Source: a virus
Reading direction: 5' to 3' (one strand)
Length of the DNA stretch: 64,000 bases
IMG/VR virus record: IMGVR_UViG_3300037961_002813
Span: 42,559-106,558 of that record
How positions within the stretch are numbered: the stretch's first letter is position 1; every line of letters starts with the position of its first letter. The notes under the pieces are model-generated. The model saw only the letters and a list, made by a program, of their open reading frames with translations. It did not search any database and had not been told where the DNA came from. This document shows, one piece after another, positions 22,486 to 63,214 of this stretch. The translations under genes and the position numbers were made by a program.

Positions 22486-22662
22486 ATGAGTGTAGTTGAA
22501 TTACTTGGATATTTTTTAGTAGCCGTTTTAGTAGGTTATGTTTGGGCTTGGTATATGATTGTTAATGAAAATACTACAGATTTTAAAGTATTTAATAGCG
22601 AAGAAGAAATAGAAGAATTCCATAAGTCTTGCTTCCACGGTATGAGGAAGGGGATTGAATGA
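22486..22662 (+). CDS. Small single-pass membrane protein (58 aa)
   Basis: Manual translation MSVVELLGYFLVAVLVGYVWAWYMIVNE...; ATGA overlap with lyase gene. Confidence 0.6.
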   Translation: MSVVELLGYFLVAVLVGYVWAWYMIVNENTTDFKVFNSEEEIEEFHKSCFHGMRKGIE

Positions 22663-23495
22663 AGGTAACCGTCTATGAGGTTGGCCCTCGTGACGGATTG
22701 CAAAATTTAAAACAATTTATACCGACTGAAATTAAAATAGGCTTGATTGATGAATTATACAAAGCCGGTTTAACTCATATTGAAGAAACATCATTTGCAC
22801 ATCCAAAGTATGTACCACAGATGGCTGATGCTGAAAATGTGTTTAACAAAGGTTCTGTGCTTGTAATGAACAAGCGTGGTCTTGATAGGGCGTTAAGTGT
22901 AGGTGCTGAAAAAATAAATATTGTATATTCACCATGTGAAGAGTTTAATATCAAAAATTTTGGTAAAACAAGAAGTGAATTAATCACAATGTACTACACA
23001 ATGCTTAACGGAATACCTAAAGAAAATATAAGAGTCTACATTTCTATGGCGTTTGGGAGTCCGTATACCGGCGTAATATCGCCTAAAATGATGCGTTTAT
23101 GTATAAAAGATGCAAAATTGTTGGGTAAAACGGTAGTTTTCTCGGATACCGTAGGTGCGGCTACAAAAGAGGAAGTAGCATTGTGGGCGGATATGGCGAA
23201 AGAGAATAATTTGAAAGCCGCTATTCATATTCATCATAACGGAGATGAACAAAAAGCAATTAGAACAGTAAAATATGCTTTATTGGAGGGTATTAGAGAA
23301 ATAGACTCTAGTATAGGCGGTTTGGGTGGCTGTCCTTTCGTACAGGAGAGTGGTGCTAACTTGTCTACTGAAACATTAGTACGACATTTGAATGTATGGG
23401 GTTTTGATTGCGGTATAACTGAAAGAAAATTACAACCGGCTTTAAAAATTGTAAGAGAAATAAAAGAACTTCAAGAGTTAATGTTAGTAAAATAG
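22659..23495 (+). CDS. hmgL: Hydroxymethylglutaryl-CoA lyase (DRE-TIM metallolyase)
   Basis: YEVGPRDGLQN, TSFAHPKYVPQMADA, SDTVG, HIHH metal site, DSSIGGLGGCPF, GANLSTE. Confidence 0.88.
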   Translation: MKVTVYEVGPRDGLQNLKQFIPTEIKIGLIDELYKAGLTHIEETSFAHPKYVPQMADAENVFNKGSVLVMNKRGLDRALSVGAEKINIVYSPCEEFNIKNFGKTRSELITMYYTMLNGIPKENIRVYISMAFGSPYTGVISPKMMRLCIKDAKLLGKTVVFSDTVGAATKEEVALWADMAKENNLKAAIHIHHNGDEQKAIRTVKYALLEGIREIDSSIGGLGGCPFVQESGANLSTETLVRHLNVWGFDCGITERKLQPALKIVREIKELQELMLVK

Positions 23496-24863
23496 ATGTT
23501 GATTTCTTGGCTCAACTACTGTTGGGTTTTCTTCTTTATAGTTTTCAGCCATTAATTGTATAGTTCTGTGCATAAAAGGGTCAATATCTTCAATTAATGT
23601 ACCGTTATTCGTCGGTGTCATTTTATGTGTGCGGTCAAGCATCATTATGTCGTCAATAAATTCTTGTGGTAATTCTTCATTGTGGTGGAGTTCTACTGAA
23701 CCTTTTACTAATAACTCCCATGCTAAATCCATAGGTTCACTTTTGTATTTCTCATCTTTTCTTGCTGTAATAGCCGCTTGTTTTTTTCGTCTTTGATTTT
23801 TTTGTCTATTTTTACCACCCATAGGTTTACCGTCTATTTTTTGCCTTCTTGCTACATGTTCTTTAAATTCATTTTTACTTAAACCGTGAGCATCAATAAG
23901 CATAGTATTATTTTTTCCAAATTGGTCGCCTGTAAACGGTTGTCCACCTCTAATAAAAGGAGTACCACGATACATAACAGTAGTAAGTATGGGTTTTTTT
24001 GTTCTAGGGTGTTCTTTAACAACTGCAATAATTGAGTCACCTCTACTACGAGAATCAGCCGAACTTAATCCATGTTGTCTTAATACATCTTTAGGTATTT
24101 CTTTCGCTTCTCTAATGTTATCTAATAAATGAGTTCGTATAGCAAATTCTTTGGTAGGAACATTTCTTTTATAGTTTCCATCTTTATCTAAATATGGGCT
24201 TAATGCAGAATGTATCCTATCTATTATTTGCTGTCTTTCCTCATCTTTTTCAAATCTATAATTCCCAAACAATCTAAAATTAGCATGGCCTATAGTGCCT
24301 TCATAAAATTCTTTAGGTAATCTACCTTTAAAACTAGGTTCTGCATTAGAGTCAAATTGAGGTCGTTGAGGTTCGGGTTCGGGTTCAATTTTTGGAGGTA
24401 AATTTTGAGCCGGAATATCTAAAGGTGCTTTATCAGCATCTATATTTTCAGTAAAAAAACCACCTTCTCGATTTCCTGCTAATACATTTGTAAAATTTTG
24501 TCTTGAAACCCCGGAATAATCATCCGGTAGATTTAGATTAGGTTTATTATACATATCTTGTATATGTTGTTGTACAGAAGGATGGACATATTCTCCCTTT
24601 GATACACTTGCACCGGCTTTGGCTTTGTCAGCCATATCTTGAGCCGATGACATTTGTGCTTGATTCTTTTGCTGTTGCATTTCTGCTCTTCGTTGTTGCA
24701 TCTCCATGCCTGTTTGAGCCATACTTTGAGGCTTAAGTTTTTCTTTTATGGCTTCTACTGCAACTTGACCTGTCTTATCCTTTGCTTTACTTGCAACACT
24801 TGCTATTGCGCCACCAATTACCCGTAAAGGTACGGCTTTACGCACACCAACAGGTCGGCTCAT
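23484..24863 (-). CDS. Multi-module hypothetical protein carrying SEPMDLAWELLVK tag
   Basis: 459-aa ORF opposite to neighbours; tag at ~23700-23744. Confidence 0.75.
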   Translation of the reverse strand: MSRPVGVRKAVPLRVIGGAIASVASKAKDKTGQVAVEAIKEKLKPQSMAQTGMEMQQRRAEMQQQKNQAQMSSAQDMADKAKAGASVSKGEYVHPSVQQHIQDMYNKPNLNLPDDYSGVSRQNFTNVLAGNREGGFFTENIDADKAPLDIPAQNLPPKIEPEPEPQRPQFDSNAEPSFKGRLPKEFYEGTIGHANFRLFGNYRFEKDEERQQIIDRIHSALSPYLDKDGNYKRNVPTKEFAIRTHLLDNIREAKEIPKDVLRQHGLSSADSRSRGDSIIAVVKEHPRTKKPILTTVMYRGTPFIRGGQPFTGDQFGKNNTMLIDAHGLSKNEFKEHVARRQKIDGKPMGGKNRQKNQRRKKQAAITARKDEKYKSEPMDLAWELLVKGSVELHHNEELPQEFIDDIMMLDRTHKMTPTNNGTLIEDIDPFMHRTIQLMAENYKEENPTVVEPRNQHLFY

Positions 24864-27310: not shown

Positions 27311-30222
27311 AACGGGGCAAAATAATTGTTAAACAAAGTCTAAGTGATGCATATAGGCAATACTTAGAGGATGTAACTATCCCAATGAATACTTATTTTG
27401 AAGCACCCGAAGAGTTTGTAACTACTAAACCATCTATTTATCATTCATTAAGATTGCAACCTGCTACTGATGCAAGAACAGGTCGAATAAGAAATTCACC
27501 CGCAATAGCAAGAGCATTAGCAAGTATAGACAATTTACAATTTCAAGATGATATAAAAAATTTCTCGTTACCATTAAACACTAATCAAGGACAACCGCTA
27601 TACGGTAGACATGTTTATCCCGGTGAGTTACATTCTTTAAGTCCTAATTTAACATCACATACATCAGTACCCGATTTACCAAGAACTTACATAAAAAGAT
27701 GGGGTGGTGGAGAAAAGTACAGACCGCTTAATTTGTATGGTTTTACAGGTGATGCCGCTACTCCGCAAAGATTTACTAATCAAACATTACAACCGGAAGG
27801 AATAATTTACGGTAATTTAGATACAAATGATGTAGTACAACTAAACACTAGACCTGCTTCTGCAATTAGATTAAGTCAAGTAGCAAGAGCATTGTCACCG
27901 TTTCATCCCGAAAGAGATGTAAAAGATTTAACTGAACGCTCGGAAGATTTAGCAAGAGATATTATGGATGCGGGTATTCCACCAATATTAGCAGAATCTA
28001 ATGTAGATACTAAAGGTGTAACTCAACATTTACCATTTAGATTAGATAATAAAATAGATGTAAAGGAAGCACATGACCCATTTGTTCAATATGATATGGG
28101 TAATTTAAATCGCCCGACCCCGGAAGGACTTGAACAGTTTACACTTGATTCTATTAGAGCAGGTGAACCAATGGACATCGCTATGCAGTTGTTGAAAGAA
28201 GAGATACCATATAGCAGTAGAGATTATCCACCACAAGAAATTTCTATATCTACAGGTAATCCGCTTGTAACACCTAAAGTTGCAGGTGAAACACCCGAAG
28301 TTTGTAACATGCCGGGATGTGATTCGGGTCTACCTCCTGTGATGTATAGAAGAATGGCTAATCCGATTAGAAGTATAGATAATCATGAATTTATGTGTGA
28401 GCAGTGCGCTTACAAACATGACTTACAATCATTACTTTTCGATAAAATGATTAAAGGTGAAATAACTCTAATGGAATACGCTATACGAAAAGCCACTTTA
28501 CCTACTTTACGAGAAGCAGGTTTAAGTTTTGAAGATTTAGATGCTTTAAGATTTATTCCTAATTATCGTAAAACAAGTTTTTATCAACCACAACTATTAA
28601 ACAAACCTGCTAACATAGATTATGAAATAAGAACTGCATCAAAAAAACCGGAATACAAAAGAATACCCGGATTACAAACAGAACTTGGACCACCACAAAA
28701 TAATATACATTCTTATTTTGTAAACCCTGCAACACGCTTAGGTGCTTTAGGGGGAGATGTGACATTCATGGCTAGACCTACATTATTAGGTATTAGAAAT
28801 AATAATAATAATTATGGAGTTGATTTTTGGAGGACTAAAAGACAAGGGGCAGGTAGTGAAGGTGGAGAAGGTTTAATTTACGGTGAACTACCAAAACAAA
28901 ATTTTGTAGAAATTCCAATAAATTATACTGCGGCTGATGCGATGAGGGCTAAATTAAATTTAGACCACTTTATGAATACTTTTCACATACCGGAAGAAGA
29001 AGCATTTGAAATGTTAGCCACTAGATTTCCCGAAGTGCATAATATAGCATCACAATTACCAAATGTAAATACTCAAGATACTTCATGGCAACAACCTGCA
29101 CAATACAGGGGTACTAATCCATTACTCTTAGATGAGATAGATACAAAAGTAGCAAGCGAGCCAATGGATATTGCTATGCAGTTGTTGAAACAAGAACCTT
29201 TACAATTGAGAAATAGTGCTGAACTTGCCGAATTAGCAAGACAAGGTGACACGGAAGCATACAATGAAATGATGGAAAGAACAGGTGATTATTACTTGGC
29301 TAATGAAATAACCGGAGAACCCGATATGGAGGCTAACTTAGAGGCTTACGGGGCTGAAACAGGTAAAAATCCATTTAAAACTCCCCCTATTGGGCGTACA
29401 AATCAAATTCAAATCCATCAACCTCCTGTGACTCCTATTCATGCTGATAAAAAATTACATAATTGGCAATACAAAAACGCAAGTGAGCCGATGGAGATTG
29501 CTATGCAGTTGCTAAAGCGTGAATTACATCCCGGTAGAGATATAGAGGGTTATCTAAAAGATGATGGACATTATGCCGGTGAAGAAGAACTTTACAATTT
29601 AAATGACCCCGAAGTACAAAATTTTGTAAATAGATTACATTTAGATAAACAACCACCCGTACATCTTATTCCCGAAACTTTAGGTATGGATTTAGAATAT
29701 GTTGAGCCGGAGTTAAGAGTTGAAAATAGAGATACTAAGTTATATCATCCTATTATGATGGATGAACATGAAAACTTAGATAAATTCCCCGATAGAAAAA
29801 TAGTTGAAAGAGAAGATGGTACAAAAGAAGAACTAGTTTCTACAAGCGACCCAACAAGTGATGTTGTTGGAGTTGGAAGAACAGGTCGTACTCTTGTATC
29901 TTCAAAACCTACATTTGAAGGTATACCATTTAGTGAAGAAACAGGCTTTACCCGTAGCGAACCGATGGAGATTGCTATGCAACTACTCAAAGAGCGTGTA
30001 AGCCCCGAAGCCAAGCGACACAAGTTAGAGTATGATAAGAAGTATGAATCTTCACCGGAGAGAGTAAAATACCGTGAAGAATTAAACCGTGAGCGTAGGC
30101 GTAGACACATTATGGGTAGGGGTGGACCGGATATGAGCCACACCAAAGACCATACCATTGTACCGGAAAGCCCTCATACTAATCGGGCAAGGCATTTTAA
30201 AGACAAAGGAACTCTTTTGTAA
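27307..30222 (+). CDS. Polyprotein-like protein with four EPM(D/E)IAMQLLK linkers
   Basis: Linkers at 28159, 29152, 29479, 29953 separate unrelated modules; last module basic and HNH-remnant-like (DMSH...TNRARH). Confidence 0.8.
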   Translation: MKRGKIIVKQSLSDAYRQYLEDVTIPMNTYFEAPEEFVTTKPSIYHSLRLQPATDARTGRIRNSPAIARALASIDNLQFQDDIKNFSLPLNTNQGQPLYGRHVYPGELHSLSPNLTSHTSVPDLPRTYIKRWGGGEKYRPLNLYGFTGDAATPQRFTNQTLQPEGIIYGNLDTNDVVQLNTRPASAIRLSQVARALSPFHPERDVKDLTERSEDLARDIMDAGIPPILAESNVDTKGVTQHLPFRLDNKIDVKEAHDPFVQYDMGNLNRPTPEGLEQFTLDSIRAGEPMDIAMQLLKEEIPYSSRDYPPQEISISTGNPLVTPKVAGETPEVCNMPGCDSGLPPVMYRRMANPIRSIDNHEFMCEQCAYKHDLQSLLFDKMIKGEITLMEYAIRKATLPTLREAGLSFEDLDALRFIPNYRKTSFYQPQLLNKPANIDYEIRTASKKPEYKRIPGLQTELGPPQNNIHSYFVNPATRLGALGGDVTFMARPTLLGIRNNNNNYGVDFWRTKRQGAGSEGGEGLIYGELPKQNFVEIPINYTAADAMRAKLNLDHFMNTFHIPEEEAFEMLATRFPEVHNIASQLPNVNTQDTSWQQPAQYRGTNPLLLDEIDTKVASEPMDIAMQLLKQEPLQLRNSAELAELARQGDTEAYNEMMERTGDYYLANEITGEPDMEANLEAYGAETGKNPFKTPPIGRTNQIQIHQPPVTPIHADKKLHNWQYKNASEPMEIAMQLLKRELHPGRDIEGYLKDDGHYAGEEELYNLNDPEVQNFVNRLHLDKQPPVHLIPETLGMDLEYVEPELRVENRDTKLYHPIMMDEHENLDKFPDRKIVEREDGTKEELVSTSDPTSDVVGVGRTGRTLVSSKPTFEGIPFSEETGFTRSEPMEIAMQLLKERVSPEAKRHKLEYDKKYESSPERVKYREELNRERRRRHIMGRGGPDMSHTKDHTIVPESPHTNRARHFKDKGTLL

Positions 30223-30362
30223 TAGTCAAATATTCACAATGTTCACTATGTTAGTCAATAAAATGACTATTCACTTTATTCACTACTCTCTAATAATAAT
30301 ATAATATATTTGTATAGTCAAAATAATGAACATGAATATGAACAAAGTGAATATATGAATAG
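30222..30362. repeat. Symmetric TRTTCA(C) repeat element around AT-rich core (origin-like element 2)
   Basis: TRTTCAC at 30231, 30240, 30268, 30277; AT core 30291-30325; inverted TGAAYA at 30327, 30333, 30339, 30348, 30356. Confidence 0.75.
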
Positions 30363-30392
30363 AAATCTTTATATTGGCTATAAAATTGACCA

Positions 30393-30947
30393 ATGGTGAG
30401 CAACATGCAAGGTACAGGACAAGACTCGGATGCAGAAATAAGATTGATGGGGTTGATTTTAGCCCAATCAGCGTTAGTAGGATTAGCAATAGGTGTGTTT
30501 GATGCAGACCTATGGTTGAAAAGTGAAACTCCTATGCTAAATGGATTCACATACGCTATGGCCGCTTTCTTTGTACAAGGTATTGCTTATTATTTCTTTA
30601 AGATGTTCTTTGAACAGAATATGCAAGAAAGAGTAAGAGCAACCGGTGTACAAAGGTCAAGAGATGCAAGATACAAACAAATGCAAATGAATTTTGATAA
30701 CAGGAGAGTTGAGATGGAAATGCGAATGCAAGAAGCCCAACTTGAGCGTGAATTGCGTTGGATGGAAGCAAATCCCGGTAAAATGCCTCCAAGTTGGGGT
30801 GTACCGGGTGGTTCACAATCTATAGTTTCACAATATGATTCCGGTCAATTTAATCCCGGTATACCAAGTCATGAAGTTGAAGTAGACCAACCGATTAACT
30901 TAGGTATCAAAGAAGAGGAAGGAAAAGAGGAAAAGAAGAAAAAGTGA
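30393..30947 (+). CDS. Membrane protein (2 TM plus coiled coil)
   Basis: LMGLILAQSALVGLAIGVF and GFTYAMAAFFVQGIAYYFF hydrophobic segments. Confidence 0.75.
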   Translation: MVSNMQGTGQDSDAEIRLMGLILAQSALVGLAIGVFDADLWLKSETPMLNGFTYAMAAFFVQGIAYYFFKMFFEQNMQERVRATGVQRSRDARYKQMQMNFDNRRVEMEMRMQEAQLERELRWMEANPGKMPPSWGVPGGSQSIVSQYDSGQFNPGIPSHEVEVDQPINLGIKEEEGKEEKKKK

Positions 30948-30956
30948 GGTGGTTAG

Positions 30957-31199
30957 TTGGGTCGTATCTTCAAAACCCCTACTGATGATTCTACAGAAGC
31001 AACACTACGGGCTATGCATACTCAAAATATGTTAGACACATATTATGAAAAAGGTGTTGGGTGGTTAAGAACTTTAATCTTTGTAATAATTGCAATCATG
31101 GCTACAAGTGCTTTTGAATTAAGAAGCGGTGATTCAATATGGGAAAATACTGTTGAATGGTTTTGGAATAAAGTAGAAAGTTGGGTAAGTGGTGATTAA
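30957..31199 (+). CDS. Small membrane protein
   Basis: WLRTLIFVIIAIMATSAF; GAGGTG SD. Confidence 0.7.
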   Translation: MGRIFKTPTDDSTEATLRAMHTQNMLDTYYEKGVGWLRTLIFVIIAIMATSAFELRSGDSIWENTVEWFWNKVESWVSGD

Positions 31200-31916
31200 A
31201 TGGTCGAACCTGCCGGTACTGCTTTAGTTGGTGTTGCGGTATGGGGGCAGAATCTATACAATTCTTGGAGACCAAGAAAAGTTGGAATATACGGTGCGGC
31301 TATGGTTGGTAAAACTACACTTGACCGCTATATGACTACACCGGGTGAAATGGAAGAAATACCCGATGAAGAAAGAACAAGTCACATGAGATTACTTGGA
31401 AAATATCTATTACCAAAACCTACTAGAAAGCGTATATCGTGGAAAGGAGATAGAAGAGTAGTATTTTCTGCTGACTTGGGTGGACAAGAAAGATTTTGGT
31501 CACTGTGGATAGACGATATGGTTGCTCGACAAGTAGAGGCTGTAGTATACATGTTTGATGAAAGAGCCTTCAAAGGCGGCGATGAAGCATTACAACAAAT
31601 AGCCGGATTCAAATATTTAGTAGACTGTATAATTAATAGACAGTATAGGTATCGTAATCTCAAAAGTAGATGGAAGGGTAAAAAATATGTGCCAAAACTA
31701 GTAATGTTGGTTGCTAATAAAGCAGATAGATTTTTCGATGAGTCTGCCGCTATGCTTTGGCAACAAAACAGAATAGGAGAGCATAAGGTGTTTGACCCAT
31801 TTAGAGATGATTTAGTTAGATTACAAAAAGCCGGAGTGCCTACTAGAAGGTCATTCATGGCTACAAGAATAGGGTGGAATGTAGAAACCACATTAATAGA
31901 TTTACTTTCTGCGTAG
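31200..31916 (+). CDS. Small Ras-superfamily (Arf/Sar-like) GTPase
   Basis: G1 GAAMVGKTT, G3 DLGGQ, G4 NKAD, G5-like FMAT. Confidence 0.85.
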   Translation: MVEPAGTALVGVAVWGQNLYNSWRPRKVGIYGAAMVGKTTLDRYMTTPGEMEEIPDEERTSHMRLLGKYLLPKPTRKRISWKGDRRVVFSADLGGQERFWSLWIDDMVARQVEAVVYMFDERAFKGGDEALQQIAGFKYLVDCIINRQYRYRNLKSRWKGKKYVPKLVMLVANKADRFFDESAAMLWQQNRIGEHKVFDPFRDDLVRLQKAGVPTRRSFMATRIGWNVETTLIDLLSA

Positions 31917-31921
31917 GTGAT

Positions 31922-32095
31922 ATGATGAATAAAAGAACAAAGATAATAGCAGTGAATAAAAACACAAAGTGTGTAAGAACAGTTATACCTAATGCGATGG
32001 CTGAACTAATTAATGTTAAGGCCGGTGATGAAATTTCATGGGTACTAAAAACCGATAAAAATAAATTTTATCTCGAAGTAACTAAGGTGGAATAA
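31922..32095 (+). CDS. AbrB/MazE-like DNA-binding protein
   Basis: RTVIPNAMAELINVKAGDEISW; GGTGA SD before ATG 31922. Confidence 0.75.
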   Translation: MMNKRTKIIAVNKNTKCVRTVIPNAMAELINVKAGDEISWVLKTDKNKFYLEVTKVE

Positions 32096-32096
32096 A

Positions 32097-33038
32097 ATGT
32101 ATAATAGTGGCAATCAACCAAATCTAGGACAAGTAAACCAAGCACAACTCTTGGCATTAAGTCAGCAAGGTAATAATTCATTAACACACAGGGCGTTAAT
32201 CGAACAAGCAACTGCACAAGCGGCTATGCAAGAAGCATCAAAGAAAACTGATTTACAAGTTCCTAAAGTAAACTTTTATCCAAGTCGTCATCCTAATCCT
32301 AACAAAGCAAGAAAGAAAGATATTAAACAGGCATATAAACTTCTTACACCTACTAAAAGAAGTATATTTAATCCGTTTAGGTTATTCTTTGGTAGAAAAT
32401 ACCGTTACAATAAGCAAAGTCATGTATGTGTAGTAGATGGTTGTGATTGTGCTAATTTAATTCAGTATGATAATTTATATGCTAAAATTTGCGATGAAGA
32501 TACAGGAGATTCTTTGTGGGATTTGTATTGGAAAAATCCCGTAACAGGAGAGCCGGAAGCGTTTGTTGCGCTTGAAAAAGTCACTAGTGGTCGTAAAATG
32601 CGTGGTACATATTGCCCCGAACACATGCATTTGTATCATTTACTTGTAAAATGGGAAGCAGAAGAAGATAAAATTAGTGAAGCGAATCCAAGAAGATTGA
32701 GAGATAGAGTCAAGAAAGGAGTATCTATTGTTACTGTTCCTATTACAGCAATAAAGAAAAATGACCCTACACCGGAAATGCTAAAGAAATATGAGCCGTT
32801 TTTTGCCGAATTAGAAAAAGATGCAAGAAAAACTAAAGGAATTAACATTCAGTATTATACTAATCCTATGACTAAACAAAACGATATTACAATTGTAAGT
32901 TTTGATTTAAGAATATTTCAGCATGAATTGGCTATGTTTAATCAACCTACACCTGCTTTTCAAGCGATGTTAAACCAACAAGTAGAAGAAGTAGTTAATC
33001 AAAACACTAATTTGATAGATACCCTTCCGACGGAGTGA
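32097..33038 (+). CDS. Hypothetical protein with Cys/His motifs
   Basis: CVVDGCDC, YCPEH; Q-rich N-terminus. Confidence 0.7.
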   Translation: MYNSGNQPNLGQVNQAQLLALSQQGNNSLTHRALIEQATAQAAMQEASKKTDLQVPKVNFYPSRHPNPNKARKKDIKQAYKLLTPTKRSIFNPFRLFFGRKYRYNKQSHVCVVDGCDCANLIQYDNLYAKICDEDTGDSLWDLYWKNPVTGEPEAFVALEKVTSGRKMRGTYCPEHMHLYHLLVKWEAEEDKISEANPRRLRDRVKKGVSIVTVPITAIKKNDPTPEMLKKYEPFFAELEKDARKTKGINIQYYTNPMTKQNDITIVSFDLRIFQHELAMFNQPTPAFQAMLNQQVEEVVNQNTNLIDTLPTE

Positions 33039-33658
33039 TAGAGATGTTTGGACTAAGTGGAAATAATCAAAATTCTAATACCTTAAACTTAGGTGTTCCA
33101 TCTCAACAACCTATACAAACAGCCAATCCGTGGGCGCAACAACAACAACCTAATCCGTTCATGGCAGGTTTATTTGGAGGACAACAACAAGCCAATCAAT
33201 TTATGCAACAACCAATGCAACCACCAAGTGAGATAGAAATTCAAATGGAGTTATTAAAACAACAAGCAACTATTGAAAGATTTGTTGCAAGTAGTCAAAT
33301 GGGAGTATTAATTGAAATGATGGGAAGTGTAGTTACTTTAAGTGTTTTAGAAATATTAAGAAATGCTACTTTTACACTCAACGAAGATGATGGCACTTTG
33401 CGTTTAGATACTACAACATTACCTGCTAATTTACAGACTATGAGTGCAGAAAATATAGCAAGTCAATTTACTAATTTACAAGCATCAGCACAACAAGTAG
33501 TCAATCAAAGTGAAATGACACAACAACAGTTAGCCGCATTAGCACAACAATCCATGATGGGTGGTGCTTTAGCGGCTTTACAAAGTGAAGGAGTTATGGA
33601 GAAAGTTGGAGGCGGAGTGGGAAGTTTCGCTCGTTCAATGCTAACAGGAGGAAGATAA
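33035..33658 (+). CDS. Gln-rich hypothetical protein
   Basis: ORF track; operonic overlap. Confidence 0.7.
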   Translation: MIEMFGLSGNNQNSNTLNLGVPSQQPIQTANPWAQQQQPNPFMAGLFGGQQQANQFMQQPMQPPSEIEIQMELLKQQATIERFVASSQMGVLIEMMGSVVTLSVLEILRNATFTLNEDDGTLRLDTTTLPANLQTMSAENIASQFTNLQASAQQVVNQSEMTQQQLAALAQQSMMGGALAALQSEGVMEKVGGGVGSFARSMLTGGR

Positions 33659-33659
33659 A

Positions 33660-33911
33660 ATGATGGATAAAGATTACTCAACATACATACCGCAATCGTT
33701 TGCCGCATCTACATTAGATGTACTGAATCCAAACAGAAGTGTGATAATAGATATGATAATGGTTCAAATTCTTTCTATGATTGTAGTTATGTCTATGATT
33801 TTAGTTTTCAAAGGTAGCACTATGCCTTCTTCTACAATATCATACTTTTTAGTTGGTTTGTTTGCTAGTTTCCTTATGCTTAGTGGAGTCTATAGCCGTA
33901 TCACTAGATGA
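33660..33911 (+). CDS. Small 2-TM membrane protein
   Basis: MIMVQILSMIVVMSMILVF and ISYFLVGLFASFLMLSGVY. Confidence 0.7.
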   Translation: MMDKDYSTYIPQSFAASTLDVLNPNRSVIIDMIMVQILSMIVVMSMILVFKGSTMPSSTISYFLVGLFASFLMLSGVYSRITR

Positions 33912-34148
33912 CGGCCATTTTCCTATAGGGCAACTTGAATTAAGTAAACTAATTTTAGTTTTAACAAAACACCCACACATATCACATCTTTTACCACCGA
34001 ATTGACAAGAGTTGCAGATTTGCTCTCTTAACATTCTTAATTCGGGTGGAGTTTTATTATTGAGTGCTACATCTTTAGCGGCTCTCGTTAGACTTTTGAG
34101 AGTCTGCATATTTAGGGGAACACCCGCAACTCTTTTTGCTCTCCACAT
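33849..34148 (-). CDS. Cys-rich protein (CxxC...RCxxCGCF...CPxGKW)
   Basis: ICNSCQ..KRCDMCGCFVKTK...CPIGKW; start revised to MWRAK. Confidence 0.65.
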   Translation of the reverse strand: MWRAKRVAGVPLNMQTLKSLTRAAKDVALNNKTPPELRMLREQICNSCQFGGKRCDMCGCFVKTKISLLNSSCPIGKWPSSSDTAIDSTKHKETSKQTN

Positions 34149-34209
34149 AGTACTTTCCAAGTTATTTTTCTCCATAAGCATTTTGTAAGGGATAGACATA
34201 AGCGTGTAC

Positions 34210-34890
34210 ATGCAGGAGGCGAATCGCATAGTGAAACGGTCCTGCAAACTTTGTACTAGTGACAGTAGAGATGAGATAGAAGAACAATTACTCAACGGTC
34301 ATATTAGTCCAAAAGAAGTAGATAAAATGATGGGTTGGCGAGCCAATACTACTGATAGACACTTTCGTAATCACATGGGAGAATATCACATGGCGGCTAA
34401 TCCATCTTGTCCTATTTGTGCAAGTCCTAAAAGAGCCGAATATGAAAAAGAATATTTTGAAGGAAATGCTGATACTCACGCAATAGCAGAAGAATTAGGA
34501 TGTGCTGAAAGAACAGTCTATAATCACATGAAACATCACTTCCAACCTTTAGTGCAGAAAACTGCGGCATACGAAGTAGCATTAGCGGCAGGTCAAGAAA
34601 TACAATTACTGCGTTCTAATGCAGAAAAACTAAACAGTAAACTAAGTGAATTACTAGATGAAGGTACAGTTCATGAAGATGGTTTTGTTCGTGATGCTGT
34701 TATTCTACACAAAGAAGTAAGAGAAACAGTAAAAGATTTACTTCGCTTCCAAGACCAATGGGGGGCTAAGACAGATAATCAACAAGTCAATCAAACTATC
34801 AATGTATTACAGATTGAACTTAGTAAAGAAAGCCCGGAAACTTGGACAAGAATTAGAAAGCAGTTGGCTGAAAATATGGGGGTAGAATAA
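34210..34890 (+). CDS. Tandem Zn-binding HTH protein, candidate terminase small subunit
   Basis: Two SCxxC...H(F/M)xxH repeats plus coiled coil; upstream of large terminase. Confidence 0.5.
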   Translation: MQEANRIVKRSCKLCTSDSRDEIEEQLLNGHISPKEVDKMMGWRANTTDRHFRNHMGEYHMAANPSCPICASPKRAEYEKEYFEGNADTHAIAEELGCAERTVYNHMKHHFQPLVQKTAAYEVALAAGQEIQLLRSNAEKLNSKLSELLDEGTVHEDGFVRDAVILHKEVRETVKDLLRFQDQWGAKTDNQQVNQTINVLQIELSKESPETWTRIRKQLAENMGVE

Positions 34891-41921: not shown

Positions 41922-42935
41922 ATGACTAAAGTATTAATCCGCAAGAACTTGAACCGATGGTTCAAAGAAAAGTGGGTTGATGTTAGTCGTAAAGATAAGG
42001 ATGGTAAGCACCCGCCATGCGGTAGGTCAAAAGCCAAGACTTCAAGCAAAGGTTATCCAAAGTGTAGACCGAGTGTAAAAGTTTCAAGTAAAACTCCAAA
42101 AACTTCCGGCTCAATGTCCGAAGGGCAAAAACAAGCCGCTACTAAAAGAAAGCGTAGTAAGAAACAAGGAGTCGGTGGTAAGCCTACAATTGTAAAAGAA
42201 GATTTCATCAATGACCCTATGAGTAGTTTTAACATGATGATGGCTTTACAAGATGAAGCGTATAAATTGGCTGAATTAAATATGCCTTACTCTCGTGAAA
42301 TATATCCAAATCGTGATGAATATGAAGATGCTTTAGAATTGGAAGGAGAATATCAACTTATGCAGATGATGACTAATCCTAAGTATGCACCTCTAAGAGA
42401 AAGATATATGCAAAGTATCCCAAAAATGACTGAAACAGATGGGTTTTCTCAAGATTTTATTGATACTTACAAAGGCAATCCAATAGAAATCGCATTTAGA
42501 TTATTAAAAGCACCTCGTATACCTCGTAAAAAAGGACAACCTGCGGGTTCAAAGAAGCATTCCGATTTGTATACTGATGAAAACCCAAAAGGAACAATAC
42601 ATAATTTAGGATTTAAAAATCCTCAAAAAGCAAGACAGTCAGTTAGTAAAATCAAAAACAGTAGTAGAACTCATGCTCACAAAACTCAAGCGGCTATCGC
42701 TATGGAACAAAGAGCAAGAGAAATGGGTAAAAAACAAGAAGCAGGTATATACCGTAGATTCATAGAGCAACAGAAAAAGAAAACAAAGGAGATGAATAAA
42801 ATGGATGATAAGAAGAAAAAGAAAGGCGTTGTAATGGTCATCGCTATTGGTGGTAAGCCACCTAAAGGTATGGAAAAACCAAAAGATGACAAGAAAAAAG
42901 CATTTGATGACGCTTGGAATACATTAAATAAATAG
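41922..42935 (+). CDS. Modular basic protein (WFKEKWVD..PCGR..YPKCRP and HSDLYTDENPKGT modules)
   Basis: Basic modules separated by PTIVK and GNPIEIAFRLLK; C-terminal AFDDAWNTLNK. Confidence 0.75.
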   Translation: MTKVLIRKNLNRWFKEKWVDVSRKDKDGKHPPCGRSKAKTSSKGYPKCRPSVKVSSKTPKTSGSMSEGQKQAATKRKRSKKQGVGGKPTIVKEDFINDPMSSFNMMMALQDEAYKLAELNMPYSREIYPNRDEYEDALELEGEYQLMQMMTNPKYAPLRERYMQSIPKMTETDGFSQDFIDTYKGNPIEIAFRLLKAPRIPRKKGQPAGSKKHSDLYTDENPKGTIHNLGFKNPQKARQSVSKIKNSSRTHAHKTQAAIAMEQRAREMGKKQEAGIYRRFIEQQKKKTKEMNKMDDKKKKKGVVMVIAIGGKPPKGMEKPKDDKKKAFDDAWNTLNK

Positions 42936-62680: not shown

Positions 62681-63214
62681 ATGAAGAAATCACTTATCAA
62701 ATATAGAAGAATGGGCGCACTAAACTACGCTCGATGGGTGTGCGAAACCAATGGTGTAGAGTTACAATTAGTTCTTGATGCAATTCAAAATAAAGAATTA
62801 ATTATTGGTTTATTAAACAGGGGTGAAATAGAATCTTTAGTTCAAGATATTTTAGACAACCCTCCTATAGAAACTACCGAAGAAGAAATCAATCCTCTTG
62901 TACAAGAAGAGGCAATAAACCCATTCCCTGCTGATGTTCAGCAATACGATTCCCTAAAAGTTACTGAATTAAAGGAACTTTGCAAGGAGAGAAATCTCCC
63001 TGTATATGGAACTAAAGCAGAACTTGTTTTGCGTCTAAGGCAGAACGATGAAGGGATAACAACCGAAACAGGTGAAACTGACGGCCTCGCAGAAGCGACC
63101 CCGGATGTAGAGCCGGAAGCCCCTACCGAAGAGGTAGCCGCATCCAATGGAAGTGACATAAATGACCAAACCACAGATAGTGAAGAACAAGAGCCTATTA
63201 TTGAAGAAGAATGA
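62681..63214 (+). CDS. SAP-domain protein
   Basis: YDSLKVTELKELCKERNLPVYGTKAELVLRL. Confidence 0.85.
   Translation: MKKSLIKYRRMGALNYARWVCETNGVELQLVLDAIQNKELIIGLLNRGEIESLVQDILDNPPIETTEEEINPLVQEEAINPFPADVQQYDSLKVTELKELCKERNLPVYGTKAELVLRLRQNDEGITTETGETDGLAEATPDVEPEAPTEEVAASNGSDINDQTTDSEEQEPIIEEE

Follow-up and report, generated by a model that had tools for sequence, protein, structure and literature searches.

An Arf-family-like small GTPase in a conserved five-gene cassette of magroviruses, a candidate for viral action at the host membrane

The IMG/VR virus record IMGVR_UViG_3300037961_002813 contains, in the stretch of 64,000 nucleotides analysed here (positions 42,559 to 106,558 of the record; hereafter, the window), a run of seven plus-strand open reading frames (ORFs) at 30393-33911 that encode a small GTPase, predicted transmembrane (TM) proteins, a Cys/His protein and a Gln-rich (Q-rich) protein. 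The original prediction, made from the DNA sequence alone, had singled out this run as a possible egress or membrane-remodelling module, and all seven ORFs were found at the coordinates that it gave. Five of these genes form a unit that recurs in three very different lineages, and the resulting cassette is a candidate for how magroviruses act on, or leave through, the host membrane. No description of the cassette was found in the literature searched, nor any paper that joins magroviruses and GTPases; the only earlier flag on the gene is the automatic JGI annotation 'GTPase SAR1 family protein'. What is new here is the presence of the cassette core in loci anchored on the large terminase (TerL) gene, the negative outcome of the comparison with the ArvABC system and the record of a group-D-like element that carries the cassette.

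The cassette and its genes

The ORFs of the cassette are tightly packed, with gaps of 9, 0, ~5, 1, -4 and 1 nt, in order. They are preceded by an AT-rich intergenic region of 170 bp (30223..30392, plus strand), one of the few gaps >150 bp on the plus-strand (late) arm of the window. A TATA-like TTTATATT lies within this region, at 30368-30375, and the promoter of the cassette is probably located there.

The first core gene, TM1 (30393..30947, plus strand; 184 amino acids (aa)), is present 5' of the GTPase gene in all three lineages. The protein consists of an acidic N-terminus, a hydrophobic hairpin and a highly charged, coiled-coil-like tail with a Lys/Glu-rich end. Hydrophobic segments, here and below, were delineated on the Kyte-Doolittle (KD) scale in windows of 19 residues; TM1 has a strong segment at 18-36 (2.16) and a weaker one at ~54-75 (mean ~1.2), and its family alignment keeps L18, L23, G30 and E74. 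No Pfam, PHROG, NCBIfam or PADLOC family was found for this protein. The stop codon of the second core gene, TM2 (30957..31199, plus strand; 80 aa), abuts the GTPase start. TM2 combines a conserved N-terminal segment of ~35 aa with one TM segment (37-55; 1.91) and an acidic, Trp-rich C-terminus, and a protein of 72-95 aa with the same build is encoded immediately 5' of the GTPase gene in every lineage. By the positive-inside rule, the conserved segments of TM1 and TM2 are each predicted to be cytoplasmic.

The third core gene (31200..31916, plus strand) encodes the Arf-family-like small GTPase of 238 aa, the best conserved product of the cassette. It is followed by an accessory gene for a small SpoVT/AbrB-like protein of ~57 aa (31922..32095, plus strand), for which the match to PF04014 is a weak call (E 3.6e-4; 20.8 bits, under the cut-off of 24.7); its start is more likely to be the ATG at 31922 than the GTG given in the ORF list (31874), with which it would overlap the GTPase gene.

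The Cys/His protein (32097..33038, plus strand; 313 aa) and the Q-rich protein (33035..33658, plus strand; 207 aa) are the products of the other two core genes. In the Cys/His protein, a Q/N-rich N-terminus and a basic stretch precede a conserved core that consists of C111, G115, a second Cys, which forms a CxxC in lineage 2, and then G-T-Y-C173-x-x-H176; from this pattern of residues, the core is probably a zinc-binding knuckle. With phmmer, the protein is connected to its lineage 3 counterpart at 1e-34 and to those of lineage 2 at 2e-4 to 4e-3. The curated libraries (Pfam, PHROGs, NCBIfam) contained no family match and the ESM Atlas no usable match for the Cys/His protein, the AlphaFold2 (AF2) model of which is poor (predicted local distance difference test (pLDDT) 62, predicted template modelling score (pTM) 0.42), and VIA-align over 48,161 chains yielded nothing above Z 4.3. 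A predicted complex of the GTPase with residues 50-290 of the Cys/His protein scored 0.00, a value that was obtained without controls and counts neither way on binding. In the Q-rich protein, an M-G-L-F-G-type N-terminus and a low-complexity Q/N/G region precede a conserved central domain of ~100 aa (G120, E139, N140), and the tail is rich in Q and G; its gene is always immediately 3' of the Cys/His gene, usually with a stop/start overlap.

The last gene, TM3 (33660..33911, plus strand; 83 aa), is a lineage-specific sixth gene, and its product has two TM segments (32-50, 2.61; 59-77, 1.84) and a basic C-terminus. Searches of PHROGs, NCBIfam and PADLOC returned nothing significant for the cassette proteins.

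The GTPase and its affinity to the Arf branch

Judging by its sequence, the ORF at 31200-31916 is a real small GTPase. The motif set read from it originally is exact, with GAAMVGKTT at residues 32-40, DLGGQERFWSLW at 92-103, NKAD at 173-176 and MAT at 220-222, and the Ras-superfamily (TRAFAC) motifs are found in order: G1 at 32-39, G3 at 92-96, G4 at 173-176 and G5 at 220-222. Among 29 relatives with 71-99% identity, G32, G37, K38, T39, D92, G94, G95, W103, N173, K174, D176, M220, A221 and T222 are invariant. In a cross-lineage alignment of 22 diverse viral members that are 21-37% identical to the window protein, G32, G37, K38, D92, G95, N173 and K174 are invariant, and D176, the G5 Ala and W103 (at least 90% conserved across lineages) are nearly so. 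Because the P-loop, G3 and NKxD residues are kept down to 21% identity, nucleotide binding appears to be under selection, and the protein presumably binds GTP.

This conservation makes it very improbable that the protein is a degenerate pseudo-GTPase that functions as a structural adaptor only, a view to which the variable residue after GG (Q, E, D, H or A), the lack of a clear G2 threonine and the uniformly weak matches to curated families would lend themselves. The residue after GG is the catalytic one in Ras and Arf, and its variability implies that hydrolysis may be slow or partner-dependent; in lineage 3, this position is occupied by His, and Sar1 also uses His at the catalytic position. 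In switch I, T47 is nearly invariant but lies 8 residues past the P-loop Thr, and neither T60 nor T75 is conserved across lineages.

In the AF2 model of the GTPase (pLDDT 76, pTM 0.77), the canonical order of six strands and five helices is predicted, along with an N-terminal helix (residues 4-23), a beta2-beta3 hairpin (75-81, 84-94) and two inserts, one in switch I (47-74, ~25 extra residues) and the other a basic stretch of ~20 residues before beta5 (147-165). A Foldseek comparison of the model with the PDB retrieved Rac, Rab and Ras at E ~1e-7, and VIA-align gave Z of 10-13.4 over 143-177 residues. The hydrophobic N-terminal extension that had been noticed at the outset is present, yet it stays below the TM threshold (maximum KD 0.88); across the 22-member alignment, an extension of this kind, 22-40 aa long, is found in every lineage. 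The hydrophobic moment of the N-terminal helix is modest (0.27-0.56) and exceeds that of 95% of shuffles in 5 of the 22 members.

A search of 5.8 billion proteins yielded 457 relatives of the GTPase, the top 120 of which show 78-98% identity and are nearly all 238 aa long. The family is compact and isolated, given that a HMMER search over 1.84 billion representatives recovered only 86 entries at E<=1e-3, full-length forms of 220-280 aa included.

Profile searches, profile-profile comparison, fold comparison and language-model neighbours all place the protein nearest to the Arf/Arl/Sar/SRbeta branch, in agreement with the Arf/Sar-like identity that was originally proposed. With the 22-member profile, the best true match in the PDB was GerdArfR1 (8oun_A, E 1.7e-7), in an alignment that starts inside the N-terminal helix, followed by Arl8A, Arl8B and Arl10 at ~1e-4 and by the Ras/Rab proteins Rab33, IFT22 and KRas at 2e-3 or higher; matches to RecA are repeated P-loop matches. 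GerdArfR1 (8OUN/8OUM) is an Asgard Arf-related protein, and the Arf family is defined by an N-terminal amphipathic helix that is freed on GTP binding and serves as the membrane anchor (10.1101/2024.02.28.582541). The hhalign probability was 98.5% for P0203 and 98.7% for P0205, two proteins that pass Pfam Arf and were aligned over the full length, and 97.1% for a 220-aa Asgard protein that passes both Pfam Arf and SRPRB. The top rows of the VIA-align comparison are tied within 1 Z and comprise Arf6 (13.4; root mean square deviation 3.2, 158 aligned), SRbeta (13.3), Gs-alpha (13.0) and Arl2, LokiRagO and Sar1 (12.7 each). Among the language-model neighbours, viral clusters come first, followed by bacterial clusters annotated as Arf. 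At the level of individual families, PF00025 was matched by 10 of the 22 members at E<=0.1 (best, 8.7e-4).

The features shared with Arf, Arl8, Arl3, Sar1 and Asgard ArfR, the source of the best profile and fold matches, are a Ras-like G domain that follows an N-terminal helix, the DxGG[Q/H] motif with a Trp at +11 (D92 to W103), with equal spacing in the alignments with Arl8/Arl10 and GerdArfR1, NKxD, and a G5 region of the type [C/M/S]-A-T/x...G..V.E. The viral GTPase differs from the Arf family in the inserts in switch I and before beta5, the unfixed catalytic Gln, the origin from a non-Asgard archaeal virus and the unrelated partners. We use the label 'Arf-family-like' and stop short of assigning the GTPase to the family because the window protein scores below the Pfam cut-off (Arf, 10.8 bits against 22.3, E 0.34; Roc, 17.9 against 27, E 3.7e-3), because the aromatic residue before the G3 Asp is missing (position 91 is A, S or T, compared with IWD in Arl8/Arl10 and IFD in GerdArfR1), and because its helix is not significantly amphipathic, with a hydrophobic moment of 0.32 that 15% of its own shuffles reach. 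On the evidence of motifs, profiles and model, then, the protein is a very divergent Arf-family-like small GTPase.

SRbeta is a GTPase of the Arf branch that has a dedicated partner and acts at a membrane. It is among the tied top structural matches (2fh5_B, Z 13.3; 7obq_v, 12.5), SRPRB was matched, if weakly, by 6 of the 22 family members (best E 2.4e-4), and one fringe relative was automatically named signal recognition particle receptor beta. Taken with the fact that the cassette supplies its own membrane proteins, these matches would fit a takeover of the host at its membrane, by SRbeta-like targeting or insertion, by interference with division or envelope biogenesis, or by superinfection exclusion. 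We consider such a role unlikely: SRbeta has a true N-terminal TM anchor, for which the viral N-terminus is too weakly hydrophobic, and binds the SRX of SRalpha, whereas nothing like this partner was recognised in the family scans; no PADLOC family was matched; and the position of the gene on the non-early arm is at odds with the usually early timing of takeover functions.

Two Asgard metagenome-assembled genomes (MAGs) encode a 220-aa Arf-family GTPase with a basic insert before beta5 like that of the viral protein (L173:1474-2949 and L176:528-1971); the gene after it encodes a YkgJ-like Cys-cluster protein, which has an acidic tail. The latter was considered as a relative of the viral Cys/His protein and rejected, at a probability of 0.2%.

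Conservation of the cassette across lineages and elements

The linkage of the GTPase gene with membrane protein genes, the loss of which in relatives would have spoken against the original prediction, was found in every relative examined, in three very different lineages. The 80 close IMG/VR loci all contain TM1, TM2, the GTPase gene, a variable small ORF, the Cys/His and Q-rich genes, TM3 (34-94% identity) and a helix-turn-helix (HTH) gene, and the best conserved of these is the GTPase gene (71-99% identity). The AbrB-like gene was detected in 34 of the 80 (29-90% identity), with other small ORFs in its place elsewhere, and is absent from lineages 2 and 3; likewise, TM3 was not found 3' of the Q-rich gene in these two lineages. 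Of the cluster as it was first drawn, TM1, TM2, the GTPase, the Cys/His protein and the Q-rich protein stand as a conserved five-gene unit, and the AbrB-like gene and TM3, the latter a gene of the window lineage, are accessory.

The location of the unit relative to the structural genes differs between lineages. Among the TerL-anchored loci with at least 9.5 kb of upstream sequence, the GTPase gene lies 7.8-9.9 kb upstream of TerL in 33 of 33, and the window cassette lies 8.9 kb upstream. The second lineage (375 IMG/VR loci, with a GTPase of 220-223 aa) includes complete 98-kb genomes without a chaperonin; the same five genes, in the same order, are located 3' of the capsid gene and three small head genes and 5' of the tail genes. 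In the third lineage (L161-L164), the five genes directly follow the thermosome gene. TM1, TM2, the Cys/His protein and the Q-rich protein each have a family alignment that spans the three lineages.

One of the third-lineage loci (L164) comes from a record of 110 kb and 52.5% GC, denoted G032, the genes of which include those for a family-B DNA polymerase, a thermosome and an RNA polymerase A-like protein (1611 aa). This gene set is like that of group D magroviruses, for which no morphogenetic block was found (PMC5434244). When G032 was compared by phmmer with all window ORFs and two second-lineage loci, the cassette proteins alone matched. No match to Terminase_6C, Phage_portal, the window TerL or the second-lineage capsid protein was detected in G032, and Pfam revealed no structural family among its 20 largest ORFs; the same TerL, portal and capsid searches succeed in the second-lineage genomes, where TerL is 38% identical. 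Because G032 is linear, with an estimated completeness of 79% and many large ORFs without a family, the missing capsid genes prove nothing. The cassette is clearly a unit that is common to very different elements and differently placed in each, and G032 suggests that it travels beyond tailed genomes.

These placements bear on the possibility that the cassette is a morphogenesis factor, with the GTPase as a GTP-timed chaperone or scaffold, or with a membrane-tethered assembly site, where the Q-rich protein would be scaffold-like. In the window, the cassette has the same orientation as the structural and packaging block in which it is embedded, the core is found in the TerL-anchored loci, and the second-lineage cassette sits between the capsid/head-completion and tail genes, all of which would suit such a role. 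It becomes improbable given that the position relative to the head, tail and packaging genes differs between the lineages and that the cassette is present in the group-D-like G032, with no TerL, portal or capsid gene detected. Furthermore, integral membrane proteins, which make up 2 of the 5 core proteins, are unusual in head-tail assembly, and none of the cassette proteins carries the EPMxxA[WM]xxLLK peptide tags that are found in the large late proteins encoded on its flanks.

Outside the virus records, the cassette is scarce. Among cellular genomes (one per prokaryote species), only three matches were obtained, with 72-73% identity, on contigs of 8-16 kb; these contigs (L165, L166 and L167), in MAGs labelled Maricaulis, Promethearchaeati and Parvibaculum, are probably mis-binned magrovirus contigs. 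The GenBank phage collection contained no DNA or protein match for the cassette or the GTPase, and no IMG/VR locus was found for protein P0129. Small GTPases had been described from the outset as unusual in tailed viruses and do seem to be rare there: the small GTPases matched in BFVD belong to giant viruses of eukaryotes and not to tailed viruses.

A separate feature of G032 is a 2955-aa ORF (L268:307-9171, minus strand; 73303-82170 of G032) in which HD, guanylate kinase, NUDIX, glutaredoxin, DUF7831 and DUF5824 domains are combined in one frame.

The virus, its host and the timing of expression

The window has a GC content of ~38% and is divided into a minus-strand arm (1-20.3 kb), with genes for an SNF2 helicase, a tyrosine-phosphatase-like protein and a DUF932 protein, and a plus-strand arm (20.8-64 kb), with the genes for the large terminase, the portal, an S78 prohead protease, an SU10-type capsid protein and a tail-tube-like protein. 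The GTPase gene has close relatives on contigs of up to 150 kb from Tara Oceans and marine JGI samples, and a Cpn60/TCP1 chaperonin is encoded in related IMG/VR records (100-107 kb; completeness, 94-100%). Group A magroviruses are marine tailed viruses with SNF2 and a thermosome (Philosof et al., PMC5434244), and the same combination of marine origin, morphogenetic block, SNF2 and thermosome-type chaperonin is found here, with the chaperonin encoded in the relatives and the other genes in the window. Magroviruses are among the most abundant viruses of the surface ocean, and Marine Group II (Poseidoniales) was inferred to be their host (PMC5434244). From the magrovirus features and this earlier assignment, the host of the window virus is presumably a member of Marine Group II (Poseidoniales), abundant archaea of the ocean, and not a haloarchaeon.

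The minus-strand arm carries a recurrent motif, ATGATATATAAACCAA, that was found in 8 copies (six exact and two with one mismatch) compared with 0.12 expected, all on the minus strand between 955 and 20260. The five copies that were inspected lie ~15-35 nt upstream of the starts of genes of this arm, and the motif is likely to be an early promoter with a TATA box. No copies were found on the plus-strand arm, near the cassette or in its 170-bp gap.

Possible action at the host membrane

The reading that we favour, at somewhat less than an even chance, is that the cassette is a self-contained, non-early viral module built on an Arf-family-like GTP switch at the host membrane, with an output that favours release. 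The GTPase would bind GTP and, in the GTP-bound form, would sit on the cytoplasmic face of the host membrane. Its anchor would be the N-terminal hydrophobic helix, the cytoplasmic segments of TM1 and TM2, or a combination of the two. The membrane-docked GTPase would then recruit or control the zinc-type Cys/His protein and the Q-rich protein, and the favoured output would be the remodelling or breach of the host membrane at the end of infection, with the release of progeny. The docking, the binding of partners and the output are what we infer for the cassette, with different degrees of confidence: we lean towards action at the membrane, and egress is a possible but rather doubtful output.

Several observations weigh against this scheme. 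The catalytic residue after GG is not fixed and G2 has no clear threonine; the window protein falls short of the Pfam cut-offs, and its helix is no more amphipathic than shuffled versions of itself. Strand, position and the lack of a single promoter motif are the only indications of late timing. The cassette lies within morphogenetic gene blocks, which would suit a role in assembly too, and the group-D-like element that speaks for mobility beyond tailed genomes is known from a linear, incomplete record with many ORFs that belong to no family.

The egress machinery of head-tailed archaeal viruses has been described as "still completely uncharacterized" (PMC10791045). As stated in the original prediction, the window encodes no recognisable holin or endolysin: none was found among ~39 window ORFs searched against Pfam or 10 searched against PHROGs, although holins are too diverse to be excluded by sequence. 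TM1 and TM3 resemble phage holins in being small membrane proteins of the late arm, and TM1 fits the generic description of a holin, but the cassette has no adjoining lysin or cell-wall hydrolase, and holins are not known to have a GTPase partner.

The nearest experimentally studied analogue of the action proposed here is the ArvABC (OapABC) system. ArvA drives vesicle formation in Haloferax, ArvB is a DUF2073 protein (OapB) and ArvC is a Zn-ribbon protein (OapC), proposed to be the GTPase-activating protein (PMC10927574). On paper, the two systems work in a similar way, ArvA being a small GTPase of the archaeal world that has a releasable hydrophobic helix, is encoded beside a Zn-ribbon protein and drives vesiculation of the membrane. 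Homology between the two was tested with ArvA, OapB and OapC of an Asgard MAG and rejected, the likeness being functional and architectural. In hhalign, the OapB-adjoining Asgard ArvA aligned with the viral GTPase profile at 71% over 40 P-loop columns only, and its gene was missed by the viral hidden Markov model, which matched Arf-like paralogues in the same genome; in Pfam, ArvA scores as a GTPase of the MMR_HSR1/EF-Tu type. The Cys/His profile matched OapC at a probability of 0.2% and the Q-rich profile matched OapB at 0.1%, and neither OapB (PF09846) nor OapC (PF09845) was found among the cassette proteins with Pfam at E<=1.

A more specific version of membrane action, to which we assign a low probability, is that the cassette is a GTP-switched viral vesiculation or scission machine, in which TM1 and TM2 would nucleate the Arf-like GTPase on the membrane and the zinc-type and Q-rich proteins would regulate or couple it. 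If so, it would be a functional parallel, of independent composition, to coat nucleation by Sar1/Arf and to ArvABC; tailed magroviruses would exit their wall-less host by means of this machine, and group-D-like elements without recognisable capsid genes might spread in vesicles. It would also imply that the mobilome of non-Asgard archaea includes GTPases of the Arf branch that act at membranes.

The small GTPases of giant viruses, namely Rab, Ras and Ran, have the same fold (mimivirus Rab, PDB 5XC5, Z 10.9). These proteins are recent captures from eukaryotic hosts by Nucleocytoviricota and clear members of the Rab, Ras or Ran families, whereas the magrovirus GTPase, from a tailed virus of prokaryotes, lacks close relatives in cells and belongs to a fixed cassette with membrane proteins.

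Whatever its output, the cassette is a core gene set of magroviruses and bears on the open question of how head-tailed archaeal viruses exit the cell; it is small enough to be expressed and contains an enzyme with a simple read-out. Discussion of Arf-family GTPases outside eukaryotes has so far concerned Asgard archaea. The finding of a deeply diverged GTPase of the Arf branch, fixed in Marine Group II viruses and virus-like elements, is relevant to the origin and movement of such membrane switches.

Other features of the window

Several features around the cassette are of separate interest. The gap between TM3 and the HTH gene is filled by a minus-strand ORF (33849-34295) with a CxxC...CxxC pattern and a weak match to DUF6171 (2e-4); its counterparts, present in about half of the close loci, are 27-96% identical, and the true ORF is probably shorter than the one listed. 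The next gene (34204-34890) encodes a protein of 228 aa in which a zinc-ribbon-like N-terminus is combined with an HTH and a coiled coil. This protein weakly matches a small-terminase PHROG (phrog_2538, 1.4e-3) and GerE/HTH families and may be the small subunit of the terminase, with its gene heading the packaging operon.

The EPMxxA[WM]xxLLK peptide tag occurs at 28165, 29158, 29485, 29959, 35295, 35805 and 42477 on the plus strand and at 23738 on the minus strand, in proteins of 971, 610, 337 and 459 aa around the cassette. Elsewhere on the late arm, an HMGL-like TIM-barrel protein (22659-23495; PF00682, E 2e-20) is a possible auxiliary metabolic gene product, and a 177-aa protein encoded among the tail genes (62681-63214) contains a SAP DNA-binding domain (PF02037, 2.4e-12).

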